Of a stretch of DNA of 64,000 nt, positions 8,269 through 63,943 are shown one piece after another (position 1 is the first letter of the stretch; every line of letters starts with the position of its first letter). Source of the DNA: Candidatus Portnoybacteria bacterium (GTDB taxonomy: Bacteria; Patescibacteriota; Minisyncoccia; Portnoybacterales; GWB1-42-6); assembly GCA_028688325.1 (NCBI GenBank), contig JAQTYI010000002.1, positions 161,284 through 225,283 of the forward strand, given 5' to 3'. Position numbers and translations under genes: made by a program. Below the pieces are notes generated by a model. It was not told where the DNA came from, ran no database searches, and was given only the letters and a program-made list of their open reading frames with translations.

Positions 8269-8344
8269 TTTAATTCCCGAACCTCAATTTCAAATTTCCA
8301 ATAAAATCCCAAATCTCAATTATCAATTATCAATTATCAAAAAA
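8265..8344. repeat. AT-rich word-repeat intergenic element (caattatcaat words)
   Basis: ccaataaaatcccaaatctcaattatcaattatcaattatcaa; shares words with 10958-11118, 13189-13297 and 20380-20573. Confidence 0.55.
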
Positions 8345-8716
8345 TTATTTCGACTTATTGATAATCGAGGAAAAGATAAAAACAAGCTCTTGGCGTTCTT
8401 TCCATAGGGTCCGGCAATCTTGCTGATTTAATGGACAAGCTTTAGCTATCATTCTTAACCAATGCATTGTTTCTTTGGCCTCTTTCCGAGAAATCGCAAG
8501 CTTATGTTTGAAATCTTTTTTAGATTCGCCGGCATCCGCTTCCGTATAGTTTGCGCCGATACTCGTCCCCGATCTGACTATTTGGCCGATCAAAGGCCTC
8601 GTTACTTCGTCTTTTTTTATTAATCGGGCAAATTCAATAATATTTTCACCCAATAAAGCGGTTCTTTCCAAAAGGTCATATTTTTTGTTATTGGAAATTG
8701 GGATTTTATTTGACAT
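8345..8716 (-). CDS. Four-helix-bundle protein (23S rRNA intervening-sequence protein family)
   Basis: 123 aa; family motifs SGTSIGANYTEADAGESKKDFKHKLAISRKEAKETMHWLRM. Confidence 0.8.
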   Translation of the reverse strand: MSNKIPISNNKKYDLLERTALLGENIIEFARLIKKDEVTRPLIGQIVRSGTSIGANYTEADAGESKKDFKHKLAISRKEAKETMHWLRMIAKACPLNQQDCRTLWKERQELVFIFSSIINKSK

Positions 8717-8738
8717 TAAGATTTAGTCATTGGTCATT

Positions 8739-11057: not shown

Positions 11058-11118
11058 ATTATTAAAGATTTGGGGTTGGGATTTTATTGGAAATTTGTCA
11101 TTGGGATTTGCTTGAAAA
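10958..11118. repeat. AT-rich palindromic intergenic element (aaatcccaa / ttgggattt words)
   Basis: aaaatcccaatgcccaaaaccaaaacccaaataaaatc ... gatttggggttgggattttattggaaatttgtcattgggattt: inverted arms. Confidence 0.55.
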
Positions 11119-13188
11119 TTATTTTATCTGTTCCCAATACCGCCTAACTTCCTCACCCATTTTACCATCAATCTTTTGCGCTTGTGAAATGATTTCCTGC
11201 GCTTTGGCCTGTTGCCCCGATAAAGAATAGCCGGCCGCCAAGACCAGATAGGCGTCTTTTTTATTCGGCCTCAGCTCTTTAGCTCGGTTGCCCAAGTCAA
11301 TGGCCATGCTCATCCGGCCACGGTCTTGGGTCGAAAAATAAAGATCCAACCAGGCCAGCGCAAGATAATTCCCGGCTTGGTCGGGCGAGCGCTCAATCCC
11401 TTTTGCCAGCGCCGCGGCGGCGATATTATAAAAGTCCTCATTTTGCGCCAAAGCCGGGTTTTGATTGATTTTATCAATATAGTCCAAAGAGGCCTGATAT
11501 GCAATCTCGGCGGAACCGAATGCGCCCAGATCAAGCGCATCTTTCAGCAGAGGCGCCTCAAGGGCGGCATTTTCCGCGGGCAATGACAATATCTGGTTGG
11601 CCCGGTAGGCGGCCAGGAGAGGTTTGAAATTAAAAGAGTAAACGGCCGTTAGCAAATAGCCGACAACCAATAGCAAAATAATTTTTTTAAAAACACTCCA
11701 CTCGCCGCCGCGAGAAATCTCCCGCCGGCAAGGAAATATCACGCAGTCGGACTGCGTGATATTGACGATAAATGCCAGAACGAAAAACAGCATTAGATAA
11801 GAAACAAAGGAATCAAAAATAAAAAAATTCTGGACCAGATACGCGGCCAGGAGAGACAAAAAAATGACAGAAAATAAAAACGCCTTTTTTTTATTTTCTG
11901 TCATCCCGGACTCGATCCGGGATCCAGGAGCATGGATTCCGGCTTTCGCCGGAATGACAACCCTAATTAATTCATAGCTTACTATAATAAAAATACCCAA
12001 ATACGCCAACAATCCCAGCCAACCCGTTGCCACGCCGTAATCAAAAATAAAATTGTGTGCGCGGTCAGTTGCGTAGGCCTCAAATTCCGCCAGGCGCGGC
12101 GATAGATATCGGCCCGTGGCCGCCTCGAAATTTTCCGGACCAAAACCCAAAATCGGCTTGGTTTGCCAGGCCCGCCAAGCGCCTTGCCAAAGAAGCAAGC
12201 GGCTTTGGGTCGTGGCATCGCTCAGGGAAAAATGGGTTAAGCGATACAGAGTTGAATTATTTTTTACCAGGTCGTTGCCGCGGAAAAGAAACAAAGAAAT
12301 AATCAAAACAAAAATAATGGCCAAAAACACCCAGCTTGTTTTTTTTGTCATCCCGAATTTATTTTGGGATTTCCTGTCACTGGATCCTGAAACAAGTTTA
12401 GGACGACAAACTTCTTGATTAAATAAAAAAATAATTATCCCCGCCGCCAGCCCCAGCCACGCGCCGCGCGTGCCGGACAATAATAAGCTTATGGTTAATA
12501 GCAAAGAACTAATAGCAAAAAACCATTTTCGCCACCCGGCCGACGCAAAAAATAAATAACCGGCTAAAAAAAGATTAAGCAAGGCATAGCCGGCAAAAAA
12601 GCCCGCGTTGCCGATAAGACCAAAGACCCGGCCATTTGCCGGCAAAAGAATACCCCAGCCCCCCAGGCGCTGAATAAGGGCTGTGAGGGCGATAAATACG
12701 GCCACTGCCACTGAAATTCCCGCTAATTTAACCCAATCTTGCTGCCCCTTAAAAACGGCGGATAACATTAAAAACCAAGCAACAAAATGCGCTAAACCCC
12801 AAACTCCGCCTCCCCGCTCCAAACTACCCCAAAAACTATTGTAAAAATCTAAGCCAAAAATGGCAGAGAGAAGGTTGATGGCGAAAAAAACCAATACCGC
12901 GCCCGCAACGCTGGTAAACCAACTTGTGTAGCGGGCAGGCCTGGATTCCGGCTCTCCGCTCACGCTTCGGCCGAAATGACAAAATGTTTTGGGATATTTT
13001 AGCGCCAGATAAAGATAGAGCGCCGCGGCGATCTCCACCAAAATCCTGAACGCGAAAACTTTTGGCGCGGTATAAGGAAAAATAAAAGAAGCGCTGGCAA
13101 AAAGCGGCGCGGCCAGGCAAGCAGCCAGTAAAATTTTTATCAACCCGAAAATTTTATTATCTGTCTTAGAAAAATCTGAAATTTTCAA
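11119..13188 (-). CDS. O-antigen ligase family (Wzy_C/PglL-like) membrane protein with C-terminal TPR domain; paralog of 8739-11057 carrying three in-frame palindromic-element insertions
   Basis: 689 aa; SGTRGAWLGLAAG, GFGPENF, DRAHNFIFDYGVATGWLG motifs; TPR-like tail. Three extra peptide segments relative to the paralog coincide with palindromic-element copies at 11899-11960, 12346-12392 and 12938-12983. Confidence 0.75.
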   Translation of the reverse strand: MKISDFSKTDNKIFGLIKILLAACLAAPLFASASFIFPYTAPKVFAFRILVEIAAALYLYLALKYPKTFCHFGRSVSGEPESRPARYTSWFTSVAGAVLVFFAINLLSAIFGLDFYNSFWGSLERGGGVWGLAHFVAWFLMLSAVFKGQQDWVKLAGISVAVAVFIALTALIQRLGGWGILLPANGRVFGLIGNAGFFAGYALLNLFLAGYLFFASAGWRKWFFAISSLLLTISLLLSGTRGAWLGLAAGIIIFLFNQEVCRPKLVSGSSDRKSQNKFGMTKKTSWVFLAIIFVLIISLFLFRGNDLVKNNSTLYRLTHFSLSDATTQSRLLLWQGAWRAWQTKPILGFGPENFEAATGRYLSPRLAEFEAYATDRAHNFIFDYGVATGWLGLLAYLGIFIIVSYELIRVVIPAKAGIHAPGSRIESGMTENKKKAFLFSVIFLSLLAAYLVQNFFIFDSFVSYLMLFFVLAFIVNITQSDCVIFPCRREISRGGEWSVFKKIILLLVVGYLLTAVYSFNFKPLLAAYRANQILSLPAENAALEAPLLKDALDLGAFGSAEIAYQASLDYIDKINQNPALAQNEDFYNIAAAALAKGIERSPDQAGNYLALAWLDLYFSTQDRGRMSMAIDLGNRAKELRPNKKDAYLVLAAGYSLSGQQAKAQEIISQAQKIDGKMGEEVRRYWEQIK
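11899..11960. mobile_element. Miniature palindromic element (TGTCATCCCGG...CCGGAATGACAA family) inserted in-frame in a CDS
   Basis: tgtcatcccggactcgatccgggatccaggagcatggattccggctttcgccggaatgacaa; translated in the host ORF as VIPAKAGIHAPGSRIESGMTE; absent from the paralog. Confidence 0.7.
12346..12392. mobile_element. Degenerate copy of the TGTCATCCCG element, in-frame in the CDS
   Basis: ttgtcatcccgaatttattttgggatttcctgtcactggatcctga; host translation ...SGSSDRKSQNKFGMTKKT... Confidence 0.5.
12938..12983. mobile_element. Partial copy (right half) of the palindromic element, in-frame in the CDS
   Basis: ctggattccggctctccgctcacgcttcggccgaaatgacaaaa; host translation CHFGRSVSGEPESRP. Confidence 0.5.
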
Positions 13189-13297
13189 TTTTCAATGATC
13201 AATTATCAATGAATTTTCAATGATTAAATTTTCAATTGATAATTTGAAAATTGGTGATTGATTGAAAATTGTAAATTGATAATTGAAAATTACTTTA
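13189..13297. repeat. AT-rich ~110-bp imperfect palindrome built of ttttcaat / caattatcaat words, centred on caattg
   Basis: aattttcaatgatcaattatcaatgaattttcaatgattaaattttcaattgataatttgaaaattggtgattgattgaaaattgtaaattgataattgaaaatt; left and right arms are reverse complements with a few mismatches. Confidence 0.7.
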
Positions 13298-14209: not shown

Positions 14210-17200
14210 TTATTTGCTCAAGGTTTGAGCCGTCAGGTTGGAAGAAGGCAAACCTGAAACCAGGTAGCCGTTCGTCCAATCAGTTATAGACGAACCAACC
14301 GGCGTCGTATCATGGCTGGCGCTTGAAACATCAGACCAGATGAAGTCGTCGCTGGCGTCCAACTCAGCATTGTCAAAGGTCACCATACCAGCGCTCATAG
14401 ATGTCGGAGCTGCGGCATCACCCATCAAGTAGGTGGTAACCGAAGCGCCCGAACCGGCACCGGCAATAGTTCCTCGCAACGCAAAGGTGCGAGAAGTGCC
14501 GGCGGAAACGGTTCTGGTAGTGGTCGCTGTGCCCCAAGTCGCGGCCGCAGCATAGGTATAGATGTCAATGACACCGCCCATGTCCGCGTAGAACTGAGTG
14601 TTCGTGGTCGTCGCGTTTAGGGTGACTTGAGCCGACTCTGTTATATCCACCAAGGTAATATCCTTAATGGACAAATGTGCGCCGAGAACCGATTGGCTGG
14701 TAGTCGCGATCGTGAAGGTGAACTTGACCAAGTCAATGTCGCCCTTGGCATCAGCGGACACTTTGAATCTATACAAATCCATAGTGCCGTTAGTCAAAGT
14801 GTTGGTGTCCAACGCGACCGTGGAAACGGTCGGGACTGACTTGTAGATGTAAGCCGAGGTCTGCGCCGTGGTCGAGCTGTAGTTAGCAATTGACGCACCC
14901 GATGACTGGCCAGTACCCATGTTATATGTGGTGCTGGTTGAGCCATAGTAGTCAATCGCAATCTGATGGCCCGCATCCGCCACGGTGTTCGTGGTGAGGA
15001 TAGGCGCGATATCGGCCTTAATGGTAACGATCTTGTCAACATTCGGTGCAAGGACCAACGCCGGCGACAGAGTAAAGGTGGTTGACGCATTGTTGGTCAA
15101 GCCAACCGCATCGCCCGTGCCTAGCGTACCGCTAGCCAATAATGTCGCTCCGTCGTAGATATAAACTTTAGACAAATCGTTCGCTGAAGAGCTGGCATTT
15201 GTCAAAGCCAACATGACTTTAGTCACATTTATCTGTTCGGCGGTGGCCTTAAACTTCAACACGGTCATGGTATTGCCCGTGGTGTTACCCGCGATCAACT
15301 TGCCAGTCGGGGTTGAAGAATCCAGAACCACGCTGTATTGGCCGCCAGCCGCGATGGTCATCGCTTGGCCCGCCTGCGCCACGGTCACACCAGTGGCCGT
15401 AATGGTCAAAGTGGTGGAAACGCCGGTCGCTGTAATGGTCGGAGAGGCCTTCAAGCCCCAAGCATGGGTGCTGGTTGAGCCGGTCGTCGCGTTGCCCGCG
15501 ATATTGCCTTTCAGAGCGAGGGTCTTGGAAGTTCCCTTCGGAATTATCACGCCGGCGCTGTCCAAGGTAATAGTCGTCTGATTAGCCGCGTCGGCTGTGC
15601 CAGCCAAAGTGGTCACATTGCTACCGGTGTTTAGAGCGGTCGTGCCATCCCACAATTGCAAAGTGGAGATGTCGGTCGCTACGCCAGCCGCGCCGATGGT
15701 GTCTTGAACTTCAACCACAGTCACTTTGACATCTTCGCCGGAGGCGGTGGCGTCAAAGAGTAAATTGGCAAAAGTGTAGCCAACAATGCCGCGGATAACT
15801 TCTTGGGCCACCGGGGTGCCGGAAACCGAAACCACTAACGAGCCGCCCTTGACAGTCATGGTGTTGCCAGTAACTTGGGTGGCCGGAGTGGCGGTAATGG
15901 AATTGCCGGTCGTGCCGCCGGTGATGCTGGTAATCTTGTCACCCGGGGTATTGAAGCCCACCGCGATGGTGCCATCGTTGGTCAGCGTGGTCGCTAAATT
16001 ACCCTTGACAAGAACCTGGGTCGTGCCAACCGGGAAAGTAACAGTGCCGGTAAAGGTGGCTTTTGACTCGCCCGCGCTGGCATAAGCTGCATCAACCGGA
16101 CCAGCTAAAATAGTACCGTCGGCTTTAGTCAGGGTCATGTTGGTAATATTGCCAACACCCAAAGAAGAAGTGGCGATTTTCAAGATCATGCTCGCCACAT
16201 TGATTGGTTCGCCCGCGACAACAAAGTCGAAGGAGCCCAACAAAACGCCGGTCGCGCCTTTGGTAATGTTGGCGGCCGGAGCGCCGGTTGAACTCTTGTC
16301 AATGCGCAGAGAGCCGGTGCCGACGGTGATGTCATTGGCATTGAAGACCGGGTTGCCAGCCGTATTCCACGGGTATGTGGTGTTGGCATCCGGAGTCAAA
16401 TAATAACCATAGACATTACCCTTGATAACCACATCTGTCGTGCGATAAATATCGAACGAGATGGTTCTGGCTGAACCGCTCAAGATATTACCTTTGACGG
16501 TAAATTCTTTGGACAAACCCTTGGCAATAGTAATGCCAGCGGTGCCAAAAGAAGCGGTGAAATACTTACCGTCGGAAGAAACCGTTGTGGCATAGTTGGT
16601 CGTGCCATCAGAAACCACAACGCTCCCTAAGTCCGAAGACGCGGCCGAGCCGGACTGGTTAAACCGGATAGAGGTTATAGTCAGGTCTTCAATTGAACCA
16701 GCCGTGAATTTGACGCCGGAGAAATTGAAGTCGTTCGTGCCGACTTCCTTATTAGTGGAAGTGGCTGCATTCAACGAACCGGAAGCGACAGTGTAGCTGC
16801 CGATGCTCAAGGTTTCGTTGATGGTTTGGCTGTTGCCGGTTATCGGCAACACGCCGCTAACAGTAGCGGTGGTTTCCACCGAGACCAAAGCCAAATTAGC
16901 GGTCTGTCCGGCCGCGCTCTGCGAGGTGGACGGCATGTTGGCCGCTAAAGTGTAATACTTGGTAGTATTGGCCGGAATGGTAAAGGACTCCCGAACGGTG
17001 ATCTGGTGATCAGCATTCAAGGTTTGATTTAAGCCGATCTGAAGATTGGTCGTGTTATCAATCAAAGCGACTGAAGACAAGGCCGTATCAGCCGCTAAAC
17101 CGGTCCGCTGCGCTTTGATAGCCGTGACCGTAACATCGGTCGCGCCGGCCGTTAAAGCAAATTTTGTGAACGGAACGCGGGCCGCCTTCAAAGGCGCAAT

Positions 17201-17779
17201 ACCGGCCGCCGGAGTGTCAGAAGCCAAAGAAACCGTTACGGTTCCGGCCACACCCGGGGTGACAGTGGTTGAAGGAGAAGCAGAAGTTCCGCCAGTGATA
17301 TCAGCACCTGGGGTGTAGACATCGCGGTCAGTGGTATTTATCTGGTAAACAGAATCCCAATCATAACCGGCGGCGGTGAACGCTTCGGCGGTCATGTTGA
17401 CCCACTGTTTCGAACCGTTATCGCTGTTTGGAACCGGAACCAGGGAATAAACTTTAGGATCGCCGACGGCTCTCACTAAAGTAGAAGTCGTGAACTGGTC
17501 CATTTGCGCTTGAGTCACGGTCTTTATTCTGCTCCAGCTCAAGTGTTGATAACTGTTGAAAACGGACGGGCTCAAGACCAATCTTTTGAAGTTCTTGGCA
17601 CCCATGTATTTCACAATATAAACATCAAGAGTATTGGCAACTCTGATGGTGTCGCCTTCAAGAATGCCGGCAACAGCAGCGGAAGCAGCCAAAGGAGCCA
17701 AGGCCGCAACGCCAGACAACCACAAGATAGTGGTCACGCTGGTTGAAACGGAAATGACTTTTTTGAATGTTTTACTCAT
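14210..17779 (-). CDS. Large secreted Thr/Ser/Gly/Ala-rich repeat protein (candidate S-layer/surface adhesin-like protein)
   Basis: 1189 aa; N-terminal signal peptide (MSKTFKKVISVSTSVTTILWLSGVAALAPLAASAA); remainder low-complexity beta-rich repeated modules dominated by T, S, G, A, V; no enzymatic motifs. Confidence 0.7.
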   Translation of the reverse strand: MSKTFKKVISVSTSVTTILWLSGVAALAPLAASAAVAGILEGDTIRVANTLDVYIVKYMGAKNFKRLVLSPSVFNSYQHLSWSRIKTVTQAQMDQFTTSTLVRAVGDPKVYSLVPVPNSDNGSKQWVNMTAEAFTAAGYDWDSVYQINTTDRDVYTPGADITGGTSASPSTTVTPGVAGTVTVSLASDTPAAGIAPLKAARVPFTKFALTAGATDVTVTAIKAQRTGLAADTALSSVALIDNTTNLQIGLNQTLNADHQITVRESFTIPANTTKYYTLAANMPSTSQSAAGQTANLALVSVETTATVSGVLPITGNSQTINETLSIGSYTVASGSLNAATSTNKEVGTNDFNFSGVKFTAGSIEDLTITSIRFNQSGSAASSDLGSVVVSDGTTNYATTVSSDGKYFTASFGTAGITIAKGLSKEFTVKGNILSGSARTISFDIYRTTDVVIKGNVYGYYLTPDANTTYPWNTAGNPVFNANDITVGTGSLRIDKSSTGAPAANITKGATGVLLGSFDFVVAGEPINVASMILKIATSSLGVGNITNMTLTKADGTILAGPVDAAYASAGESKATFTGTVTFPVGTTQVLVKGNLATTLTNDGTIAVGFNTPGDKITSITGGTTGNSITATPATQVTGNTMTVKGGSLVVSVSGTPVAQEVIRGIVGYTFANLLFDATASGEDVKVTVVEVQDTIGAAGVATDISTLQLWDGTTALNTGSNVTTLAGTADAANQTTITLDSAGVIIPKGTSKTLALKGNIAGNATTGSTSTHAWGLKASPTITATGVSTTLTITATGVTVAQAGQAMTIAAGGQYSVVLDSSTPTGKLIAGNTTGNTMTVLKFKATAEQINVTKVMLALTNASSSANDLSKVYIYDGATLLASGTLGTGDAVGLTNNASTTFTLSPALVLAPNVDKIVTIKADIAPILTTNTVADAGHQIAIDYYGSTSTTYNMGTGQSSGASIANYSSTTAQTSAYIYKSVPTVSTVALDTNTLTNGTMDLYRFKVSADAKGDIDLVKFTFTIATTSQSVLGAHLSIKDITLVDITESAQVTLNATTTNTQFYADMGGVIDIYTYAAAATWGTATTTRTVSAGTSRTFALRGTIAGAGSGASVTTYLMGDAAAPTSMSAGMVTFDNAELDASDDFIWSDVSSASHDTTPVGSSITDWTNGYLVSGLPSSNLTAQTLSK

Positions 17780-20379: not shown

Positions 20380-20573
20380 GTTTCCAAAATTTGCTGCAAA
20401 TTAGCTTAAATAAAGTTTTCAATTTTCAATGCTCAATTTTTCACCCTTCGGGTGACCACCCGTAGGGTGGCAATCAATTATCAAATTTTCATTGAACATT
20501 GGTAATTGAAAATTCATTGATAATTGGAAATTGATAATTTTTAATCTATATAGTTATGCAAAAATAGTGGTTG
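20380..20573. repeat. AT-rich word-repeat element containing two short GC hairpins
   Basis: ttttcaattttcaatgctcaatttttcacccttcgggtgaccacccgtagggtggcaatcaattatcaaattttcattgaacattggtaattgaaaattcattgataattggaaattgataattt; hairpins cacccttcgggtg and ccacccgtagggtgg; may also act as the GalU terminator. Confidence 0.6.
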
Positions 20574-46018: not shown

Positions 46019-46060
46019 TTATAAATACTACAGTATACTAGTATACTGTAGTATTTATAA
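46019..46060. promoter_or_regulatory. 42-bp perfect AT-rich palindrome upstream of tRNA-Gly / downstream of ftsB
   Basis: ttataaatactacagtatactagtatactgtagtatttataa (centre actagt). Confidence 0.5.
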
Positions 46061-46486: not shown

Positions 46487-46695
46487 TTTGCTAAAATGAA
46501 TATATGGATTTCACGCGCCGCTCAAAAGGAGCCAAACTTTTCTTAATTATTGCCACGGCTATCGTGGTCTTCAGCATGCTCGCCTTCACCCTGGCGCCGC
46601 TGTTTTAAATAATAACAGAGCTGAACGATTTTTCAAATCCGCCATTGGGCGGTTTTTTTATTTCTCGCGCATACGAAAAATAACAATTAAATTTA

Positions 46696-46793
46696 TTGTC
46701 ATCCCGAACGCAGTGAGGGATCTCTCGCGTATGCGAGATTGTTGCGCGGGTCGCTTCGCTCCCGCGAGATCCCTCGTTTCACTCAGGATGACA
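46696..46793. mobile_element. Second palindromic element family (TTGTCATCC(C/T)GAACG.AGTGAGGGATC...GATCCCTCGTTTCACTCAGGATGACA), full copy
   Basis: ttgtcatcccgaacgcagtgagggatctctcgcgtatgcgagattgttgcgcgggtcgcttcgctcccgcgagatccctcgtttcactcaggatgacatt; perfect long terminal inverted repeats. Confidence 0.7.
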
Positions 46794-46808
46794 TTATTTT
46801 CAATAATG

Positions 46809-49388: not shown

Positions 49389-51128
49389 TTAATCCTGGAT
49401 TATTTCTTTATCGGACGCCACTTGCTTGAACGGCAAGCGATTCTTCATGGCTTGCCAGAAAATCTGCATCTCGGGCGAGCGCAACAAGAGTCCCGCCAGA
49501 AAATAAATTATCAAGCCGGCTATCCCGGCAATGAACCCCTGCGCCAACAGCCCCAAAAGGGTGCGGGTATCAACAAATTTATCCATGAACAACAAAACCC
49601 GCCAGGCAACGACTCCCGTCAAAATAGACGCCGACAATATTTTTACTCCGCTGGCAAAAATTTCACCAAACAGCAAGCTGCTTACGCCGCTTTTTCCCGA
49701 ATCAGCGGGAAAGGCCCGGCCGGTTTTTCGCTCCAAAGACAGCCACAACAATACCATATTCAAAATGCCACCGAGCGCATAACCCAACGCTAACCCCGCC
49801 ACGCCCAACGAGAAAGAAAAATACCACGCCAAACCGATGCGCACGAAAGAGCTTAAAAATCCCAGCCAGAAAGGCGTCTTGGTGTCTTCCAGCGCAAAAA
49901 ATCCCCGCACCAGCAGCAAATTCAGCGCTTCGGCAAAAAGCCCGACGACTAAAAACTCCAGAGTGTTGATGGCCGAAATCGTGTTGGCCCAACTGAATCG
50001 GCCCGTACCTAAAATAACGCGGACAATTTGCGCGCGCAAAACGATGAATAACGCGCTGGCCGGAATTATCAAAAAAAGTATCTGCCGAAAAGTGCTGGAA
50101 AGTGTTTTGGCAAAAGCATTCTTATCCCCCGCCTTGGCGTCTCCGGCTAGCGCCGGAAAAGCCGCCATAGCGAGCGATCCAGCCAAGATTCCCAGGGGAA
50201 AGCTGTAAATATTGTAAGACAGGTCGAATATCGCCAAACTTCCGGCCGCCAGAGTTGAAGCCAAAATCGTTATCGCCAAAAAATTTATCTGCGCCACCGC
50301 CAAAGTCAAAATGCGCGGCACGGTCAATTTAGCCATACGCCTGGCCGCGCTGTCGGCCCAGTTGAATATCGGCCGGTATTTATAGCCCAAAGACAAAATT
50401 GACGGGATTTGAATCGCCATGTGCAAAAACGCTCCCAAAACAACGCCCCAAGCCAGGCCGTAGATGCCAAAACGCGGCACCAAAAATAGAATGCCGAAAA
50501 TTATGCCCAGATTATAAAATATGGGCGTCAAAGAAAATATCAGAAATTTTTTCACGCCCTGCAAGATTCCACCCCAAATGGAACTGGCGCCCAGCAATAT
50601 GGGGCTTAAAAACATTACTCGCGTCAGCGCAACCGTCAAATTCATTTTATCCGTGCCAAATCCCGGCGTGATAAGTTTTACAAAAAACGGCGCGAAGATA
50701 AAAAACACGGCGGCCACGACCATGAGGCCCAGGCCCAGAATATTCAAAACATTATTCACAAAATCCCAAACTTCCCGGCGGTTTTTAGACCCCTCGACTT
50801 CCCTCGCCTCAGCTCGGGATAAATCGCTCGGGGAATAATTATTATTGCCTAAGCTTGTCGAAGGCCTGTTCCACAACCCGATGAACACCGGAATAAACCC
50901 CGCCGAAAGCGCGCCCAGAACCAGCAAGTTATAAACCGTGTCGGGAATGCGGAAAGCCGCGTAATAAACATCCAGGGTATCGCCGGCGCCAAATTGCCCG
51001 GCCAGGAGCCGATCGCGCAACAAACCCAAAAAACGGCTGGCCAGAGAAGCCAGCGCCAAAACCAAAGCCGCGCTCGTTATGCTGCGCGATTGGCCGTTGA
51101 AAATTTTATCGGTCAAGAATTTAAACAT
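49389..51128 (-). CDS. murJ: Lipid II flippase MurJ (MviN family), carrying an in-frame repeat-element insertion
   Basis: 579 aa; MurJ N-terminus (SAALVLALASLASRFLGLLRDRLLAGQFGAGDTLDVYYAAFRIPD), ~14 TM. Segment ...RPSTSLGNNNYSPSDLSRAEAREVEGSKN... (50790-50870) is the translated third-family repeat. Confidence 0.85.
   Translation of the reverse strand: MFKFLTDKIFNGQSRSITSAALVLALASLASRFLGLLRDRLLAGQFGAGDTLDVYYAAFRIPDTVYNLLVLGALSAGFIPVFIGLWNRPSTSLGNNNYSPSDLSRAEAREVEGSKNRREVWDFVNNVLNILGLGLMVVAAVFFIFAPFFVKLITPGFGTDKMNLTVALTRVMFLSPILLGASSIWGGILQGVKKFLIFSLTPIFYNLGIIFGILFLVPRFGIYGLAWGVVLGAFLHMAIQIPSILSLGYKYRPIFNWADSAARRMAKLTVPRILTLAVAQINFLAITILASTLAAGSLAIFDLSYNIYSFPLGILAGSLAMAAFPALAGDAKAGDKNAFAKTLSSTFRQILFLIIPASALFIVLRAQIVRVILGTGRFSWANTISAINTLEFLVVGLFAEALNLLLVRGFFALEDTKTPFWLGFLSSFVRIGLAWYFSFSLGVAGLALGYALGGILNMVLLWLSLERKTGRAFPADSGKSGVSSLLFGEIFASGVKILSASILTGVVAWRVLLFMDKFVDTRTLLGLLAQGFIAGIAGLIIYFLAGLLLRSPEMQIFWQAMKNRLPFKQVASDKEIIQD
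50790..50870. mobile_element. Third-family repeat copy inserted in-frame in murJ
   Basis: cccctcgacttccctcgcctcagctcgggataaatcgctcggggaataattattattgcctaagcttgtcgaaggcctg; reverse complement of the 48615-48710 module. Confidence 0.6.
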
Positions 51129-51147
51129 CCTAATATTTTAACTCAAC

Positions 51148-51211
51148 TTGTCATCCTGAACGAAGTGAGGGATCTTTTATTTTTAGATTCTTCGCTTCGC
51201 TCAGAATGACA
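51148..51211. mobile_element. Second-family palindromic element, short copy
   Basis: ttgtcatcctgaacgaagtgagggatcttttatttttagattcttcgcttcgctcagaatgacaaa. Confidence 0.65.
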
Positions 51212-51275
51212 AACTATGTTCACTTACTCACACCTCAACCCTCTCATTTTATCACCAAATCCGCAAAAGATAAAA

Positions 51276-51306
51276 AAACGGGGCTTCGCATCGCGAAGCC
51301 CCAAAA
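51276..51306 (-). terminator. GC-rich rho-independent terminator downstream of the 51338-52057 gene
   Basis: Minus strand reads ggggcttcgcgatgcgaagcccc + ttttttt (10-bp stem). Confidence 0.65.
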
Positions 51307-51337
51307 GGGTACAAGAAAAAAGATACAAGAGTAAAAC

Positions 51338-52057
51338 TCAGGAAACCGCCTGGCGAGAACGCAAATTGTCGCTCGCATCGCCGGGACCGTTCCAACCGAC
51401 CCCGAACCCGGCGCCGCCCCAGTCGGCGCTCGGCACATGGCCATCGCCATAGCGCGAACCCGTGCACAGCGTCCAGTTGATGATATCCAGATGCTTGCCG
51501 GTTTCCTTGAAGAACTTGGGCTCATAGACAAGCCGCTCTTCCAGGGTGATGCCGGGGATGTTTTTTTGCTTAAGGTCGTTGGCGGAGAGATTTTTCAGCT
51601 CCTCGTCGGCTTCAACACGGTCGCGAACCCAAACGGCATAGGCGCCGTTTTTGGCCGAGCGGTCGGAGGTGACGATTTTATCCAGATCTTCGTCTGTATA
51701 TTTCCAACTCGGAAACAGCTGCGCGCACTTGTCGTAGAGACGCTGAGCGGTCATACCTGGGATCAGGATGAGCAGGCGGTCAAAGCCGGCTCGCTTGGCC
51801 GGAATGACCAAATCGGTGAAATCCGCCTCTATGCCGAAGACATCGCGGTAGAATGCTTGCCAGTCGGCGAGCAGGTCGAGGTACGGATTTGCGGCCGAAA
51901 ATATTTTCCGCACTTGCGCCGTTAGTTTTCCTTTGTTGCCGACCCAGCTTTCAGCCGTTTCAAAAGTCATGCCAGTTGGCACCCCCTGCACCAGAGCCGA
52001 AATGATATCCTTCATCTGGCCCGGTGTCATCGTTCGGACAGTCCGATTATTTTTCAT
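51338..52057 (-). CDS. Hypothetical protein encoded in a compositionally atypical (GC-rich) segment; probably horizontally acquired
   Basis: 239 aa; strong RBS (AAGGGAGG) before the ATG; GC visibly higher than neighbours (all six frames open: 51244-51531, 51216-51452 etc. are shadow ORFs); no recognisable domain. Confidence 0.5.
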   Translation of the reverse strand: MKNNRTVRTMTPGQMKDIISALVQGVPTGMTFETAESWVGNKGKLTAQVRKIFSAANPYLDLLADWQAFYRDVFGIEADFTDLVIPAKRAGFDRLLILIPGMTAQRLYDKCAQLFPSWKYTDEDLDKIVTSDRSAKNGAYAVWVRDRVEADEELKNLSANDLKQKNIPGITLEERLVYEPKFFKETGKHLDIINWTLCTGSRYGDGHVPSADWGGAGFGVGWNGPGDASDNLRSRQAVS

Positions 52058-52236
52058 CAGCAGTTCCTCCCTTTCTTGTTGTTAAGGAGCCATCTTTGGC
52101 TCTATTTGGCGCGTTATTGCGCCTTAAAAGCTGTATTATTAGTATACCACCACTCTCTTTATCTGTCAATAGTCAGCGGCAATGTCCACACACCGACATA
52201 AACCCAATAAACAAACAGGAATGTTAGTGGTATATA

Positions 52237-52902
52237 AGCGATAGCATAAATACCCACAACATTTGTATCATTCAAAATACCCGTGATTAACTGTTCTGCT
52301 TTATAAGATTGGTAAAATGCTTTTTCAAATGCAATTCATTGTCTATTTTTTCTATGATCCCGTATCTGACATAGGGCTTGATCTGAAAAAATTCCACCAA
52401 AAAATATATTTCGTCGATACAGTCAAACGGATGAATAAAAATACTTTTTTGAAATTCAAAAAATCCCAATTTTTTCAATTTGCTTCTCAAAGCATCCCTG
52501 GCCGGCTTTTGCCTCTCAGGGATATCAAAAAGGACTATTCGCCATTTTCCATCCCAACGCATAAATTTTATGCGCATTTTTTCCATATCATACCGTAAAA
52601 CTTTTTGCTTGCCCTTTTCCGTTAAAATCAAAGAGAATGTTCCGTCATTATTATTTTTTATGCTAACCAGCTTAGAATGATAAAGTTCTCTTATTTCTTC
52701 TTTGATTTTCTGATCATCGATATCCCTCCAGCCGCCTTTTAATTTTCCCAAAATTTTAAAATATCTTCCGGGACAACGATTCAATGCTAAAGCCGCTCCA
52801 GCCGTCAATAACAATAATATCTTTTTTTTATTTTGCGTTAAATTGCTCATAAAAACATTGGATCAAATGTCGCGGGTATTTGAGCGATAGCATAAATACC
52901 CA
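52237..52902. mobile_element. Putative small cassette bounded by 20-bp direct repeats (agcgatagcataaataccca) carrying one gene
   Basis: Direct repeats at 52238-52257 and 52883-52902 flank the 52287-52850 ORF exactly; interior is much more AT-rich than the adjacent GC-rich gene. Confidence 0.5.
52287..52850 (-). CDS. Small secreted/membrane-anchored protein with a PaaX-C/Cas2-like fold segment
   Basis: 187 aa; N-terminal hydrophobic segment; core DGKWRIVLFDIPERQKPARDALRSKLKKLGFFEFQKSIFIHPFD resembles the W.G.W..v.yDiPe..r..Rd.Lr..L...GF..lQ.Sv motif of the PaaX central (Cas2-like) domain family. No CRISPR array present. Confidence 0.4.
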   Translation of the reverse strand: MSNLTQNKKKILLLLTAGAALALNRCPGRYFKILGKLKGGWRDIDDQKIKEEIRELYHSKLVSIKNNNDGTFSLILTEKGKQKVLRYDMEKMRIKFMRWDGKWRIVLFDIPERQKPARDALRSKLKKLGFFEFQKSIFIHPFDCIDEIYFLVEFFQIKPYVRYGIIEKIDNELHLKKHFTNLIKQNS

Positions 52903-52935
52903 AATAATTATTAAAAAATTAAAATGAGTTGTTTA

Positions 52936-55740
52936 TTACTTTCCGAACGCCACGCCGTAGAATTTATCGGTCTTCAACTCCCCGCTAAATTTTATCTGCC
53001 GGCCGGAAATCTGCAAATCAGCCGGATATTGCCAATTGATTTTATAATCGGCCGGCAGATTCAGGATGCTTTCCAGACCGCTTGCTATGCTGCCGGACTG
53101 CTTTTGCGCCAGCAAGCTGTAAGTAAAATTCTGTTCCGCCAAGCTGAGTTTGAATGGCAGCAAATATTGATACGATATTTCCACGCTTTCGCCCGGGCTC
53201 ACATATGCCCAGTTGCCAAAAACGGTTTTGCCAGATTCTTCAAAAATTTGCGTGCCGGAATTTTGGTCAGTTTGCATATTGCCTTCCTCTTTGGCCACAT
53301 CCGGGTCGACGGCGAATTTTTGCGCGGCATAATCAATGGGTGCGCTATTTATTTCCAAGGTCTGACCCTGCGCTGAAATAAGCTTTGAGCCCAGCGGAAC
53401 ATAAACCCGCAAATAATCCGCGTTCACCTTGTTATACCAGTCATACTGGCTTTTGCCGCCGTTGTGCGCACGGACGATTTTTACGGTATCGATTATCGAG
53501 CCGTCCGTCTGAATATCCGCAGTATGATAAATTTTCTGGTCGATAACTCTGTCGGTCTTAAAGCCGTTGATATTGGTGTTGATGACGCTCAAATAATCTT
53601 TCTCGGTGGATAATATCTCTCCGGCCCAACCCTGGTCAACAAAAGTTTTTTCCAAAGAAGGATCGGTAAAATAAAACATCGTATGCTTTTGTGCCAGCGA
53701 ATCAACAAGCACTTGCATTATCTCCTGCCCTTTTTGCGGCCAGATTTGCCATAATTTTTCCAGAAACAGCGGCGCAAAATCCGCCAGGATCTTTTTGGGC
53801 TGATTTTGCTGCTTGTCATAATCGACTTCCACCTTGTATTGCGTCAGGTCCAAAAAGTTATTCTGATCCAGGATAATATTGTATTGCGGTAAATTTATAG
53901 GCCCTGTCAGCGCTAAGAGCCGTTCCACCACCGTCGGCGTCAAAGAAATCACGCCATCAACGGTCTGGCCGCCCGCTTTTTCATAAAAACCCATTATTTT
54001 CCTGGTCGAGGTCGGGAAATCCGCGAACCAGTTGGCGTCATGAGTCGACCAAGCCGTGGAAATTTTCTGGATGGGACCGGGCGGCACGACTTTATCATAA
54101 AGCTGGCCATCCAAATTGAATATCCCGTCGATGAACAGGTTCTTCATCCGGCCTTCATCCAAATCCACCACGCCATATGTGCCGATAAATCCCCCCGTGG
54201 GCCGGGCCTCGGAATTGTTCTGAAAGACCAGTAAATATTTTTTGGCGTGTTCATGGCCCAGCACCTCCAAAAATACATTACTCCAATTTTTCAGCTGGCC
54301 AGCAACCTCAAGCAAGGGATGCATTTTTTCTTTGAGCGACGCGATCTGCGGCGCCACATCGGCTGGCAAATCATTAATGTTGACCTTGGCCAAGCTGCTT
54401 CCGGCCGCAGCCAGGGCAATTTGCGCTTTTTCAATCTCACTTTGAGCTTCCGCTATCTTTTGCGTGAGCGAGGGACCGCTCGCGGAAAAATAATCTCCCA
54501 GATTTTGCACCAAAAATATATCGGCTATCTTGGCGAAGCTCCGACCGGCTTTGGCGAAATTTTCCCCTGTATCAACCAGCGCCGCGCCCGACCCGACAAC
54601 CGAACCGCCGGGCAGCTTTTCCAGAACATAAATTATCCCTCGCCCCATTTTATTCAGCTCTTGGTCTGCCGCCAAAAAATTCTGATAGGCGGTTTCAAAA
54701 TCAACGCCGGCAGCGGAGAAATTCAAACTGGAAGCGGAGTCCTTGGCCGCCAGCATGGATTTATAGGCCTGCAAAGCCGAACTCAGGATATTTTCCTTGG
54801 CCAAAAGCCCGCGGCCCGCCAACGACATGCCAAATATTACCAAATATATTATGAATCCCGCGCTCAAAAATCCGGCGCCGCGCCGCGCCGCGCCCCCGGC
54901 CCATTCTTGCGGCTCTTTTCTTTTACCGCTCCAAAATTTCCGGCTGCCGGAAATTAACGGCGCGATCTTTGCTTTATTTTGTTTTTGCCGCCACCTGGCC
55001 AGAAAATCAGATTGTTCAATTCCGTTATCGCTTAAAATAAATTCCGCGCCATCTTCAACCATGATCTCTTCTTTTCCTCCCTTTAAATTAAAAGGGGGCG
55101 GGACGGGATTATCTGCAATTTCGATATTTGATCCCGCTATCGCCATATCCGGTTCGGCCAACAATTCTTCCAGAATATCCGGCTCTTGTTTCGCCCACAG
55201 ATATTGCTCAATGTCGGCGATTTCCGGCAAATCGGCCACCGGCTCAAAAATATTTTCCGGCGCTTTAATATTTTCGACGCCGGCGCGCCAGATGTGATTT
55301 TTCAATAAATTATTTATGGCCTCTATTTCTTCCATTTTCGCCACGATGTCGGCGCGCTCGGGATGAGAAATTTCCAGCGGCTCAAAAATCGCGGTTTTTC
55401 CTTGTCGAAAACGCTTGAAAAGCTCCATTGTCCCGGTCGGATGCTCAACGACGCTTTTTATTTCCAAAGCAGATTTCTTTTTCCGCCCGCGTTTTTGCCT
55501 GATTATTTCTTTTTTAACCGCCAAAAAAACACCCGGCCTGGCCATTCTTAAGTCAACCACGCGACCAACGGAATTGCCTCCCACGATCATTTTCAGCGGC
55601 GCAAAACCGGCCAAGTCCTGTTCGGCTTTTTCCATACCAAAATCGCCATGATTGTTTATTCTTTTATGCCTCATGGAAATATCATATTGCGGTTTCATTA
55701 TACCACGCCGGCAATGTCTCTCAATCCACAAACAGCGCAA
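52936..55740 (-). CDS. DUF4012-like large membrane-anchored extracytoplasmic protein
   Basis: 934 aa (N-terminus probably over-extended; internal starts MEKAEQ / MELFKRF); TM segment (GFLSAGFIIYLVIFGMSLAG); core YLLVFQNNSEARPTGGFIGTYGVVDLDEGRM typical of DUF4012. Confidence 0.55.
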   Translation of the reverse strand: MRCLWIERHCRRGIMKPQYDISMRHKRINNHGDFGMEKAEQDLAGFAPLKMIVGGNSVGRVVDLRMARPGVFLAVKKEIIRQKRGRKKKSALEIKSVVEHPTGTMELFKRFRQGKTAIFEPLEISHPERADIVAKMEEIEAINNLLKNHIWRAGVENIKAPENIFEPVADLPEIADIEQYLWAKQEPDILEELLAEPDMAIAGSNIEIADNPVPPPFNLKGGKEEIMVEDGAEFILSDNGIEQSDFLARWRQKQNKAKIAPLISGSRKFWSGKRKEPQEWAGGAARRGAGFLSAGFIIYLVIFGMSLAGRGLLAKENILSSALQAYKSMLAAKDSASSLNFSAAGVDFETAYQNFLAADQELNKMGRGIIYVLEKLPGGSVVGSGAALVDTGENFAKAGRSFAKIADIFLVQNLGDYFSASGPSLTQKIAEAQSEIEKAQIALAAAGSSLAKVNINDLPADVAPQIASLKEKMHPLLEVAGQLKNWSNVFLEVLGHEHAKKYLLVFQNNSEARPTGGFIGTYGVVDLDEGRMKNLFIDGIFNLDGQLYDKVVPPGPIQKISTAWSTHDANWFADFPTSTRKIMGFYEKAGGQTVDGVISLTPTVVERLLALTGPINLPQYNIILDQNNFLDLTQYKVEVDYDKQQNQPKKILADFAPLFLEKLWQIWPQKGQEIMQVLVDSLAQKHTMFYFTDPSLEKTFVDQGWAGEILSTEKDYLSVINTNINGFKTDRVIDQKIYHTADIQTDGSIIDTVKIVRAHNGGKSQYDWYNKVNADYLRVYVPLGSKLISAQGQTLEINSAPIDYAAQKFAVDPDVAKEEGNMQTDQNSGTQIFEESGKTVFGNWAYVSPGESVEISYQYLLPFKLSLAEQNFTYSLLAQKQSGSIASGLESILNLPADYKINWQYPADLQISGRQIKFSGELKTDKFYGVAFGK

Positions 55741-59309: not shown

Positions 59310-59475
59310 GACTCTATTTATAATTATAATAATAGACCCGCCCCATACCTGAATTATACACAAAACCGGCAAAAATCAAAGCCCGCCGGCATCGCGCCAA
59401 ACGGGCCTTGGTAGCAGATAAATAAAACACAAACATCCTTACATACTTGAGAATGTAAGGATGTTTGTGTTTTAT

Positions 59476-62400
59476 TTATTCCACTGTCACATTTTCTTGC
59501 GTTACTGTCGCGCCGTCTTTAATGTCCAAAATTGGCCCATTATAATATAAATAGCTAGTCGTGTCGCGGCTGTATCCGCCATACTTGAATTTAATAAATT
59601 TCAAAGTTGCCTGGCTGCCGCCGGCAAATATAATATTTCTCCATTCGCCCCTTGCAAGATTCGGCTCGCTGACCAGACCGTCGTTGTTGGTGTCACCGCC
59701 TGAAGAATCATCCTTAAAAGATGTAAAAATAATTAAGGTGGAAGACGACTGGCCGTCAGCTACCAAATTTCCGTCAATTTTCAAGGATGGATAAAGCGGG
59801 CAGGCCGCCTTAATCACTGCACCCGGCTCAATGGTCAAAGTGGAACTGGCGGTTACTGTTGGATATTGTGTCCCGATATCAGACCGCAGAATGTAGACAA
59901 TTTCTCGCTGCCAAGTCGTATTTTTTGATAAAACCGTGCGCTCGCTGACATTAACGCCGTTGAAAGAGTTGTTAATCAAATTGTTGCCGGAAAAAACCGG
60001 ATAGGCGCTTTCCAGCCAAACAGCGAATTGAAAACCGGAAATATCATTTGACTCGATCGCCGGCCGGTTTTGATTTTCAATCCTTATCGCCGTGCCGGTA
60101 TTTGCCGAGTTTCTGAAGGTATTGTTTTTAACGATTGGTGCAGACGAGCCAGTAAGATATAAAGCGGTGTCGTTATCCAAAAATTGGGAATCGGACAAAG
60201 TCAAATCGGAGCCGGTTAGCTCCAGGCCGCGGCCTTGAATATTGCGGAAAATGCAGTTATTAATATCTACTTTGGCGCCGTTAACCGCAACCGCCGGAAA
60301 ATTATTGTTGAACGGCGATCGGTACCCGCCGTATTCAAAAGTTACAAAAGACAGCTCGGAATTCAAGGAATCAGGTGCAAAATACAATCCCGTTCCCCAG
60401 TCGCCCGCTTGCGGCGCGACGCTGTTTGAGGTGAATAAAATCGGATTACCGCTCGTGCCTACGGCTTTTACGGCCCCCTTAACATATAAGGAATAAAGGG
60501 TCGCGCTTAATGGCTTTATTGTCGCGCCGGGCTCAATGGTTAAAGTGGCGCCCGCCGACACCATGGGAGATGCCTCATTGGAAGAATATAAAACATAAGG
60601 AGAACCCGCCTTGCCCCAAACGGTATTTTTGGAAATAATCGTATTGTCTCTTACCATGCTGCCGGCGGAAACATTTAGAGCATCGTTTTGGGCATTCGGA
60701 GTGCCGCCGGCAGCCGAAGTGCCCCAGGCCAAAATAAAATCGGAATAAACGCTATTATAATTTATCCTTTCCAAGGAATTGCCATTATCATTGGTGCTCC
60801 TCCAGCTATTTGAATAATTAACTCTGTCAACTATGCTGCCGGCGGCGTTTTTTAGAATTAAATCGTTGCTTAAATTAGTCAAAGATAATGAAGCGGCGCC
60901 ATTTAGAGTTAAGCGAAGATGAGCTTGATCGGACGATGGGATTGCATAATAAGCACCGTCGTAAATTGATGGCGTGGAAGTGCTTTCTGTTCTGTCCGCC
61001 AATAACGCAAAACCGCCAGAAGCAATGACCGTTGAAGAACCGTTATGAATCGTATCGGCGATGACAACATGTTCGCGGCCGTCGGAAACAAATTTCCAGT
61101 TAGCCAAATCTATCGCTATCGGGGAACGATTGTACAGCTCGACATATTCGTAATAGCTGTCCGACCCGGGATTGGGGTCATACATTATCTCGTTAAAAAT
61201 TATCGGTTTTATCGAAACCGGCGCCTGAATTTCTTGCCAAACGCTCGCTTGGCCGGCTGAGTCAACCGCCCGGGCGCGGAAATAATAAACGATATTGTCG
61301 AGATTTGACTGAAAAGATTTTGAAGTGGTGATTGTGGCCATGGCCCAGCTCTGCCAGGCACCCTGTTCGCCTATTTTATATTGCACATCATAATAGCCGA
61401 TATCCGTTGATGAACTGCTCCAGTTTACAGTAAAATCTATATTCATCAGATCATAGCCGGAAAGATCAATGGTTGCTTCCGGCGCAAAATCAATTCTCCA
61501 AGAATATTCGGTTGAAGTGGCGTTGCGGTTGCCGGCCGCGTCCGCGGCTCCAACCTTAAAAGCATGGCTGCCTTCGGCCAAATTGATATATTCTTGCGGC
61601 GAGGAACAATCGGTTGAGCTCGCGTTATCCAACTGGCAGGAAAAAGTTGAATCGCTTTCCGAGGAATTGAATTCAAAAATCGCCGTTGTTGTAGATGCTA
61701 TGCTTTCCGGCTTAACCGTAATCATTGTTTCCGGCGCCGTAGTATCCGGCGTTGAAGTTGCGGTTGAAGTGGCTGTCGGCGACGAAGATAGTGTTGACGA
61801 AAAATTGGACCCGCCGCCGGAAACAGCAACGGAAGGACTCGGATCCGGCATTTGCGCCCGGCTTGGAACCATTTCTTCGATGATCGCAGACGGAATTTCG
61901 CTGTCCTGAGGCGTTGTTTCTTCAATTATCCCCCCTTCTGCTTTTTCCTGCGCCGCAACAGCGCTTGGCGGCAATTGCGCCGCAGCTTTTTCTTCGGCCA
62001 CAATCGTGTTTAACGGCAAAGACGCGGCCGGCGGCAACGATTCCGGCAATACCGGCAATACTGAATTTTTCGGCGCCTCGCCATCCCCGCCAACAGGCGG
62101 GGCCGCGCTCGGCGCCGCATCCACTATAACCCCAGCATACAGCGGCCCGACCTTTGTCAATGACTGATTGGCTTTGTCTTTTAATTTTTGCCACCAGCTT
62201 TTATTATCATATTCCCGCTTGGTCTTTTCCGCTTCATCAAAAAATAATTTCACCGCCCCCGCGCCATAAGATACGGCTTTGGGAGCAAGAAGAGAAAAAT
62301 AGTCGGAGTGGACAGATATTGTATTTGATAAATCCATTAAGTAATGGGTATCACCAAATTTAGATTTTTTATATATTACTAAACAAATTCTATTATCTCC

Positions 62401-63911: not shown

Positions 63912-63943
63912 CTATTCTCAAATTCTTAAGAATTTGAGAATAG
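63912..63943. promoter_or_regulatory. 32-bp perfect palindrome
   Basis: ctattctcaaattcttaagaatttgagaatag. Confidence 0.45.

Follow-up and report, generated by a model that had tools for sequence, protein, structure and literature searches.

What does a short interval of deviant composition, with one of its genes enclosed by repeats, do in the genome of a bacterium of the candidate phyla radiation (CPR, or Patescibacteria)? These bacteria possess very few recognisable transcription factors, and their gene regulation is almost unknown. The interval in question lies between a DUF4012 gene and murJ in a stretch of 64,000 nucleotides from Candidatus Portnoybacteria bacterium (GenBank assembly GCA_028688325.1, contig JAQTYI010000002.1, positions 161,284 to 225,283 of the forward strand), hereafter called the window and numbered from its first letter. 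It contains a GC-rich gene for a protein of 239 amino acids (orf239) and an AT-rich gene for a PaaX-like protein of 187 amino acids (orf187). An earlier note on this DNA had read these as two independently acquired modules, namely an orphan gene, possibly derived from a defence system or a phage, and a cassette inserted between repeats of the att or attC type. Here, we argue that the islet likely consists of the variable-protein gene of a diversity-generating retroelement (DGR) and a compact PaaX-type autoregulatory module, the latter made up of orf187 and two palindromes.

The orf187 gene (52287-52850, minus strand) encodes a short protein in which an N-terminal winged helix is followed by a Cas2-like (PaaX_M) ferredoxin fold. 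This fold, which the earlier note had suspected from a motif, is confirmed by a match to PF20803 (PaaX_M; E 3.4e-21, 75.6 bits against a cut-off of 24). PF20803 is the sole Pfam family found in the protein, and no separate N- or C-terminal PaaX domain model matched. The AlphaFold2 (AF2) model (pLDDT 76) comprises three helices and a β-wing and then a β-α-β-β-α-β unit, and its best Foldseek match is E. coli PaaX (8a39), followed by VapD and Cas2. With the PaaX equivalog model TIGR02277 the protein scores 30.5 bits against a cut-off of 264.55, with the Cas2 model TIGR01573 it scores 23.3 bits against a cut-off of 24.5 and over residues 103-139 only, PADLOC returned nothing but weak Cas2 models (approximately 1e-5) and no PHROGs family matched. 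By family cut-offs and context, orf187 is neither a true PaaX nor a Cas2. Its family is large, with 426 clusters at 50% identity (E <= 1e-30), and is confined to CPR bacteria. For comparison, 80 loci of the family were taken from GTDB species representatives. At 70 loci the family gene adjoins varied housekeeping genes and has no conserved operon partner, the 70 downstream neighbours falling into 115 Pfam families that each occur no more than three times. A homologue with 87% identity occupies the same site in L005, one with 71% identity lies between DUF763 and DUF8173 in L007, adjoining FtsW and RpoB, and both show the palindrome arrangement of the window; homologues with 83% identity were found in another genomic context (L102, L115). 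Among 2.9 million viral contigs only one distant homologue was detected, and this one lacks the palindrome. Full-text searches of the literature yielded no description of palindrome-flanked PaaX/Cas2-like genes in CPR bacteria.

Both ends of orf187 are marked by the 20-mer AGCGATAGCATAAATACCCA, which occurs exactly twice in the window (52237-52256 and 52883-52902, spacing 646) and was matched in none of 100 shuffles, even with three mismatches allowed. The direct repeats reported in the earlier note are thus real, exact and limited to these two copies, although the first begins one base earlier than had been stated and the spacing changes to 646. Each 20-mer is the core of a 44-nt imperfect repeat (copies 80% identical) that is itself an imperfect palindrome. 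The downstream (D) palindrome spans 52220-52263, with the centre GCTATCGC on the gene strand, and the upstream (U) palindrome spans 52866-52909, 15 nt before the ATG of orf187 and 26 nt after the DUF4012 stop codon. The centre is unchanged in L005 and L007, where the arms are partly different. The core 8-mer is present in the 64-kb window at chance frequency; the whole palindrome is found only twice.

The same arrangement recurs throughout the family. When 250 nt upstream of each family gene were compared with 300 nt downstream, a repeat shared by the two flanks and containing the core was found in 70 of the 75 loci for which both flanks were available (median score 51; highest control 26). 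A total of 654 kb contained 111 gapless palindromes, 85 of them no more than 350 nt from an end of a family gene, and centres of the CGATCG, CTATCG or CGATAG type were present in 83 of these 85 versus 4 of the 26 palindromes elsewhere. The family palindromes have the consensus centre RCGATCGY and a median half-length of 19 bp (38 bp in total), and 95% of their positions are Watson-Crick paired. The arms differ between loci, and also between the paralogues of those several genomes that carry two or three family copies, and are near-identical in the two copies round one gene. Half-site composition depends on the distance from the dyad (position 9 is 98% A/T, position 13 is 52% C and position 16 is 55% T), indicating that more than pairing is conserved. 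In most loci the D copy lies 0-70 nt after the stop codon, and many palindromes have an A-tract at one outer end and a T-tract at the other. Intrinsic termination was considered as a function for the palindromes and rejected on account of their AT-rich stems and weak T-tracts. Neither do they resemble an insertion signature of the att or attC type, as had been proposed: palindrome centres flank nearly every gene of the family and co-vary with the encoded protein. A target-site duplication was looked for and not found, since the sequence downstream of the D palindrome is no more similar to the 3' ends of the DUF4012 genes (window, L098, L005, L116) than shuffled sequence.

The co-variation concerns the palindrome centre. 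When mutual information was calculated between alignment columns and half-site positions, one pair stood out, residue 115 and base ±4 (0.71 bit, z = 20.8). Base ±4 corresponds to the R in RCGATCGY. Residue 115 is part of the motif DIPExxK/R and occupies the N-terminal end of helix α1 in the Cas2-like domain. Lysine at this position goes with G..C (41/47 palindromes) and arginine with A..T (31/36), and the combination of R115 with R119 goes with C..G (4/4). On a neighbour-joining tree from which residues 112-120 had been left out, 13 changes of the residue and 15 of the base were counted, and only 17 when both are treated as one combined character. Residue and base therefore switch together in most cases, including switches between paralogues of one genome, and at least 10 co-switches are independent. 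The rule was checked out of sample in 28 further genes, where all 20 with lysine have G..C and all eight with arginine have A..T. The window protein, with K115 and G at ±4 of its palindrome centre, fits the family rule as well. Because residue 115 predicts base pair ±4, the orf187 protein and its relatives probably read their own flanking palindromes.

The position of the U palindrome suggests what such reading could achieve. In 27 of 36 loci, the U centre is followed at a distance of 20-40 nt by a -10-like hexamer, and no such peak exists for the D palindrome. With this spacing the dyad falls near -42 and the right arm covers the -35 region, and the overlap of the U site with the gene's own promoter in most family members implies autoregulation. 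In the window, a weak promoter-like site (52935-52907) abuts the U palindrome. In the mechanism we propose, the orf187 protein would bind as a dimer to both palindromes of approximately 44 bp, its Cas2-like domain sitting on the dyad and reading the centre RCGATCGY, with residue 115 contacting base pair ±4, while the winged helices would reach the outer arms, on the model of the 39-bp operator of E. coli PaaX. Protein bound at U would repress the promoter of orf187 itself. The D site may act as a second operator that loops to U, blocks read-through or controls the downstream neighbour.

Several palindromes occur apart from family genes. A solo palindrome (L105:8236-8279) sits 40 nt upstream of a UppP/BacA-like gene and has the left arm and core found at an orf187 homologue (L111) 60 kb off on the 560-kb contig Ga0247842_10000006, which hints at targets in trans. 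The neighbours of the module in this clade are also cell-envelope genes (MurJ, FtsW, DUF4012). In L107 (286-706; JGI contig Ga0180007_10043542), two palindromes of the window type (GGTATTTACGCTATCGCTTATATACC) lie 377 nt apart, each after the same sequence of approximately 30 nt, and enclose GC-rich non-coding DNA instead of a PaaX-like gene; the pair may represent a cassette that has lost or exchanged what it carried. The window also contains other long intergenic palindromes, at 46019-46060 (42 bp, centred on ACTAGT), 59418-59479 (62 bp) and 63912-63943 (32 bp, centred on CTTAAG). Palindromes centred on CTTAAG and ACTAGT recur in the CPR loci compared and may be sites of other palindrome-binding factors.

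The product of orf239 (51338-52057, minus strand), the second gene of the islet, has an identical entry at NCBI, PHT44_03190, from a 788,852-bp contig. No Pfam family matched it; at least 859 homologues were found, all in Patescibacteria, so that it can no longer be called an orphan. Its closest homologues on long contigs (P0003 and P0004 with 77-79% identity, P0012 with 66%) are each followed by genes for bAvd (PF22296) and then RVT_1, the reverse transcriptase (RT). In homologue loci, a 113-nt template repeat (TR), which is a copy of the 3' end of the variable-protein (VP) gene, lies approximately 300 nt downstream of that gene. The mismatches between the TR and the variable region (VR) fall on TR adenines in 15 of 15, 18 of 21 and 6 of 7 cases (L093, L095 and L098, respectively), and such adenine-confined mismatches are the diagnostic signature of DGR mutagenic retrohoming in these loci. 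L098 is syntenic with the window (GT4, GT4, x, DUF4012, VP, Avd, RT, MurJ, LepA, DivIC), and L098-L100 all share the order DUF4012, VP, Avd, RT, MurJ, LepA. The VR of orf239 (51350-51462, minus strand; 68.5% GC) aligns to the TRs of L093 and L095, and 18 of its 27 mismatches to the heterologous TR of L093 are at TR adenines. Given homologues that stand beside bAvd, RT and a TR with adenine mismatches, orf239 is, as judged from its relatives, the variable-protein gene of a DGR. An origin as a defence or phage gene, which had been considered possible, was rejected, since no PADLOC or PHROGs family matched and DGR homologues were found instead. In these relatives, an error-prone RT would copy the TR and rewrite the VR at the positions of TR adenines.

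In the genome studied here, TR, Avd and RT are missing from the locus, with an element resembling a miniature inverted-repeat transposable element (MITE) in their place, and orf239 seems to have kept its own promoter, ribosome-binding site and terminator. The predicted promoter (52141-52169, minus strand) has the form TTGACA-17-TATACT with a TG, agrees with the consensus at 11 of 12 positions and is shared with L098 and L099, in which it comes immediately after DUF4012. The Shine-Dalgarno sequence GGAGG (52066-52070, minus strand) is likewise conserved in L098 and L099. A predicted intrinsic terminator (51279-51303, minus strand) has an 11-bp stem with eight GC pairs, followed by a T-run; its position is kept in L093, L095 and L098, and its stem co-varies. 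Both the ribosome-binding site and the GC-rich terminator stem had been recognised in the earlier note. The 5' untranslated region (UTR) of the VP gene and approximately 100 nt of its 3' flank are conserved with relatives, and the 3'-flank homology to L093, L095 and L098 stops near 51235. The MITE-like palindromic element (51134-51226) then occupies the position that TR-Avd-RT have in relatives. It forms the boundary of the islet and belongs to neither module. As already noted from the sequence, it has a second copy in the window (46686-46804); both copies are intergenic, measure approximately 90-120 nt and have long imperfect inverted arms (GTCATCCTGAACGAAGTGAGGGATC ... GATTCTTCGCTTCGCTCAGAATGAC). 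An Rfam scan gave only miRNA- or sRNA-type matches below threshold, on this element and on the orf239 terminator. A lone gene for an Avd-like protein of 123 amino acids is present 43 kb from orf239 (8345-8716, minus strand; 38% GC; PF05635, the 23S_rRNA_IVP / Avd-like four-helix bundle, E 1e-15). It is enclosed by 28-nt inverted repeats (8293-8320 and 8690-8717) and has a glycosyltransferase gene on one side and an O-antigen-ligase-like gene on the other, with no RT nearby.

Comparison of near-identical strains indicates how recently orf239 has changed. Over 3.3 kb, the window shows 49 differences from L001 and 41 from L120. In L001, 40 of the 49 differences are inside the VP gene (15 in 95 nt of the VR and 25 in 595 nt of the VP gene outside it), compared to none in the 564 nt of orf187 and three in 1733 nt of DUF4012. 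At TR-adenine positions lie 12 of the 15 VR differences (p = 8e-5). Over 51368-52095, comparison with L001, L002 and L120 showed that the strains diverge only in the VP gene and its 5' UTR, by 16% in the VR and 4% outside, whereas their flanks differ by less than 0.2%. Adenine-position differences between strains this similar point to very recent DGR-type diversification in this population. With no RT at the locus, such recent diversification implies either a very recent loss of the retroelement or its action from another place in the genome.

The wider locus shows that the two modules share a variable slot. Nearly all genes around them are on the minus strand, and the order in the direction of transcription is two GT4 glycosyltransferase genes, a 122-aa open reading frame (ORF), DUF4012 (52936-55740, minus strand), orf187, orf239, MurJ (49389-51128, minus strand), a 205-aa ORF, LepA and DivIC. 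Between DUF4012 and murJ, L098 has VP-Avd-RT and no orf187, L109 has orf187 only and L005 has orf187 together with another, different 187-aa gene. L116 (11645-14153) has orf187 with genes of the insertion sequence (IS) type, namely an HTH transposase-like ORF and an IS200/IS605 TnpA-like ORF, which further supports the interval as an insertion hot spot. Outside the window, orf239 was found beside orf187 only in near-identical strains. The DUF4012-murJ interval is a variable islet with two unrelated modules, and to this extent the idea of two separate modules stands.

The compositional argument for foreign origin fares differently, although the measurements behind it were correct. The window has a GC content of 46.7% and orf239 one of 56.2%, the 99.5th percentile of 720-bp windows, with the highest GC content at third codon positions (GC3) among 47 genes (0.675, z +2.1); the neighbouring AT-rich segment with its single ORF, orf187, is the minimum of the window at 33.2%, with the lowest GC3 (0.367, z -2.8). 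The GC-richness of orf239 recurs in its homologues (VP genes of 47-52% in hosts of 40-43%, VR 55-68%, VP above host in all four loci checked) and is strongest in the adenine-depleted VR, which makes it a trait of the gene family. Low GC is in the same way a trait of the orf187 family, the gene being AT-richer than its flanks in 78 of the 80 loci (by 7 points on average), and family GC follows host GC (r = 0.78). Hence the deviations of both genes are not evidence of recent transfer into this genome, and the claim of acquisition loses that part of its basis. Two further features lie elsewhere in the window. A 1189-aa ORF (14210-17779, minus strand) without a Pfam match coincides with the GC maximum of the window (approximately 58% near 15.3 kb) and has an unusually high GC content at second codon positions (0.53). 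AT-rich motifs of 25 nt (ATTGAAAATTGG-like) occur in tandem or iterated form in the intergenic stretches 11061-11120, 13187-13286 and 20488-20539.

A number of observations weigh against the proposed combination of a DGR target gene and an autoregulatory module. On the side of orf239, neither TR nor RT was found in the 64-kb window (tblastn with the L098 RT; Pfam scans of large ORFs), no Avd gene adjoins orf239, and the 788,852-bp contig contributes none among the 120 best L093 RT homologues listed, which is a weak negative. The C-type-lectin fold expected of such a protein is not confirmed by the AF2 model (pLDDT 70, low over the VR), which has no match in the PDB. Furthermore, the divergence of 4% between strains in the non-VR part of the VP gene suggests that, besides DGR mutagenesis, recombination has replaced alleles and so contributes to the strain differences. 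On the side of orf187, only 4-15 nt separate the U palindrome from the ATG in the window and its close relatives, to which the geometry of an overlapped -35 region therefore does not apply. A classical autorepressor does not need a second site after its own stop codon, and without the ligand-binding PaaX_C domain no effector is apparent. A protein that reads a hairpin, whether of RNA or of DNA, would account for the co-variation of residue 115 with base ±4 equally well. Finally, 57 of the 76 differences between U and D copies are symmetric double changes that keep the palindromes, and dimer binding alone does not predict such compensatory changes.

We also weighed readings in which the palindromes do something other than hold a repressor. 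The palindrome-gene-palindrome unit could be a mobile or selfish cassette, with the palindromes as recombination or transposition ends and the Cas2-like protein as enzyme or specificity factor. This reading, which comes near to that of the earlier note and is compatible with a regulator, we consider rather unlikely. It would account for unrelated housekeeping neighbours without a conserved partner, for genomes with two or three copies that differ in their arms, for the syntenic L098 site that lacks the unit, for the appearance of the 83%-identical (L102, L115) and 71%-identical (L007) copies in other contexts, for AT-richness relative to the flanks, and for solo palindromes and the L107 pair round unrelated DNA. 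The 75% of U/D differences that are symmetric are also what would be expected of DNA that folds back on itself, and symmetric changes could arise mutationally as well, by template-switch correction of quasi-palindromes. However, the Portnoybacteria clade keeps the unit at the DUF4012-X site across 80-100% protein identity, with variation in the slot toward murJ, and the unit is invariant between strains (564 nt without a difference). Neither a target-site duplication nor a linked recombinase or transposase was found, homologues are nearly absent from the viral contigs, and the correlation of gene GC with host GC suggests long residence. A stronger version, in which the winged-helix/Cas2-fold protein of an autonomous selfish element would process hairpin- or cruciform-forming palindromes at the ends of its own gene through the Cas2-like domain, we regard as improbable. 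If true, it would be a Cas2-fold counterpart of the RAYT/REP or telomere-resolvase systems, and a living Cas2-like protein tied to palindromic repeats outside CRISPR.

The palindromes could also act as RNA hairpins, either as bidirectional terminators or insulators or as mRNA ends bound by the RRM-like Cas2 fold, with no binding of duplex DNA. Both window copies fold as RNA (-12.6 and -13.5 kcal/mol), the D copy closely follows the stop codon in most loci, compensatory changes dominate, outer A- and T-tracts are frequent, and Cas2 and VapD, the structural neighbours of orf187, are ribonucleases. Against this stand stems of 38% GC with weak T enrichment after them, G:U wobbles in only approximately 1% of pairs with a strand bias that is not significant (18 versus 10), the position-specific base composition of the arms, and the -10 hexamer downstream of U in most loci, which leaves the U palindrome outside the gene's own transcript. 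We give this reading little credence. We find it hardly credible that orf239 is an orphan gained by horizontal transfer, with a role in defence or an origin in a phage, or that the orf187 unit is a degenerate CRISPR-like or integron-like cassette. The extreme GC content of orf239, its own promoter and terminator, and the weak Cas2 matches of orf187 may be cited in favour. They are opposed by the many homologues of orf239 with adjoining DGR components, its lack of PADLOC or PHROGs matches, and a Cas2 score of orf187 under the family cut-off. No CRISPR array is present in the window, the Pfam scans of its ORFs gave no match to the Cas1 family, and neither the window nor the 80 loci showed an integrase, no attC covariance model having been used; moreover, palindromes that lie on both sides of a gene and co-vary with its product are unlike attC sites or CRISPR repeats.

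The autoregulatory module together with a DGR target gene therefore remains the reading we favour, and it has consequences beyond this locus. It would describe a large CPR family, often present in several copies per genome of approximately 0.8 Mb, of which each member has its presumed binding site in duplicate. The association of K115 with G and of R115 with A amounts to a testable recognition code in uncultivated bacteria. It also suggests an unexpected role for a Cas2-type fold, which would read sequence at the dyad of a PaaX-type operator. The DGR part is known in kind, and what is notable about it is a stand-alone target gene with adenine mutagenesis at the population level whose retroelement is absent from the locus. 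The locus also illustrates that deviant GC content and flanking repeats, commonly taken as signs of foreign DNA, can mislead, as here both are intrinsic to the gene families.

Known systems share some of these features and lack others. An integron cassette has a single attC at its 3' side and a linked IntI, whereas the orf187 sites are on both sides, have the centre RCGATCGY and co-vary with the gene's own protein. IS and MITE elements are characterised by a transposase and target-site duplications; the orf187 unit has no transposase, and the similarity of its flanks is at the level of shuffled controls. The REP/RAYT systems (REPtrons) are similar in that a gene is flanked by palindromes which its product recognises, as the orf187 protein would do, but RAYTs are transposases of the HUH/Y1 type and their REPs form hundreds of dispersed copies, whereas orf187 is a PaaX_M protein whose palindromes are almost confined to the gene flanks. 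A repressor gene bracketed by operators is also found in phage lambda, where cI lies between OL and OR, although looping is purely hypothetical for orf187 and lambda differs in its fold, its tripartite operators and its divergent promoters. Cas2 and VapD share with orf187 the ferredoxin-like β-α-β-β-α-β fold and the conserved Asp that ends β1 (FDIPE); unlike them, orf187 is fused to a winged helix.

For the other module, the relevant comparison is with DGRs, which abound in CPR bacteria (PMC8144416) and have been surveyed there (PMC11661182). Like CPR DGRs and Mtd of Bordetella phage BPP-1, the homologue loci have a 3' VR, a downstream TR, Avd, RT and adenine-specific mismatches, and the VR of the window bears the same signature. 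Unlike in those systems, the target gene of the window stands alone, Pfam contains no model of its family, and for its predicted fold the PDB offers no match.

The closest known relative of the orf187 module is PaaX, a GntR-like repressor of the phenylacetate catabolon. The E. coli and Pseudomonas proteins (PDB 8a39, 3l09, 3kfw) share with orf187 the winged helix and the Cas2-like central domain PF20803. The E. coli protein binds the 39-bp site TGATTC(N27)GAATCA and acts as a repressor of its own promoter (PMC9493321), and the palindromes of the orf187 family, with their median of 38 bp, are in the same size class. PaaX has approximately 310 amino acids, compared to 187 for orf187, which lacks the effector domain PaaX_C, and no paa catabolic genes are near orf187, the neighbours of which are DUF4012, the VP gene and MurJ. 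The operators differ as well. The PaaX site is a spaced inverted repeat, whereas that of orf187 is a continuous palindrome with a conserved centre, RCGATCGY, that co-varies with a residue of the central domain. Unlike PaaX, the orf187 family has its cognate sites on both sides of the gene, is present in several copies per genome and occurs exclusively in CPR bacteria.

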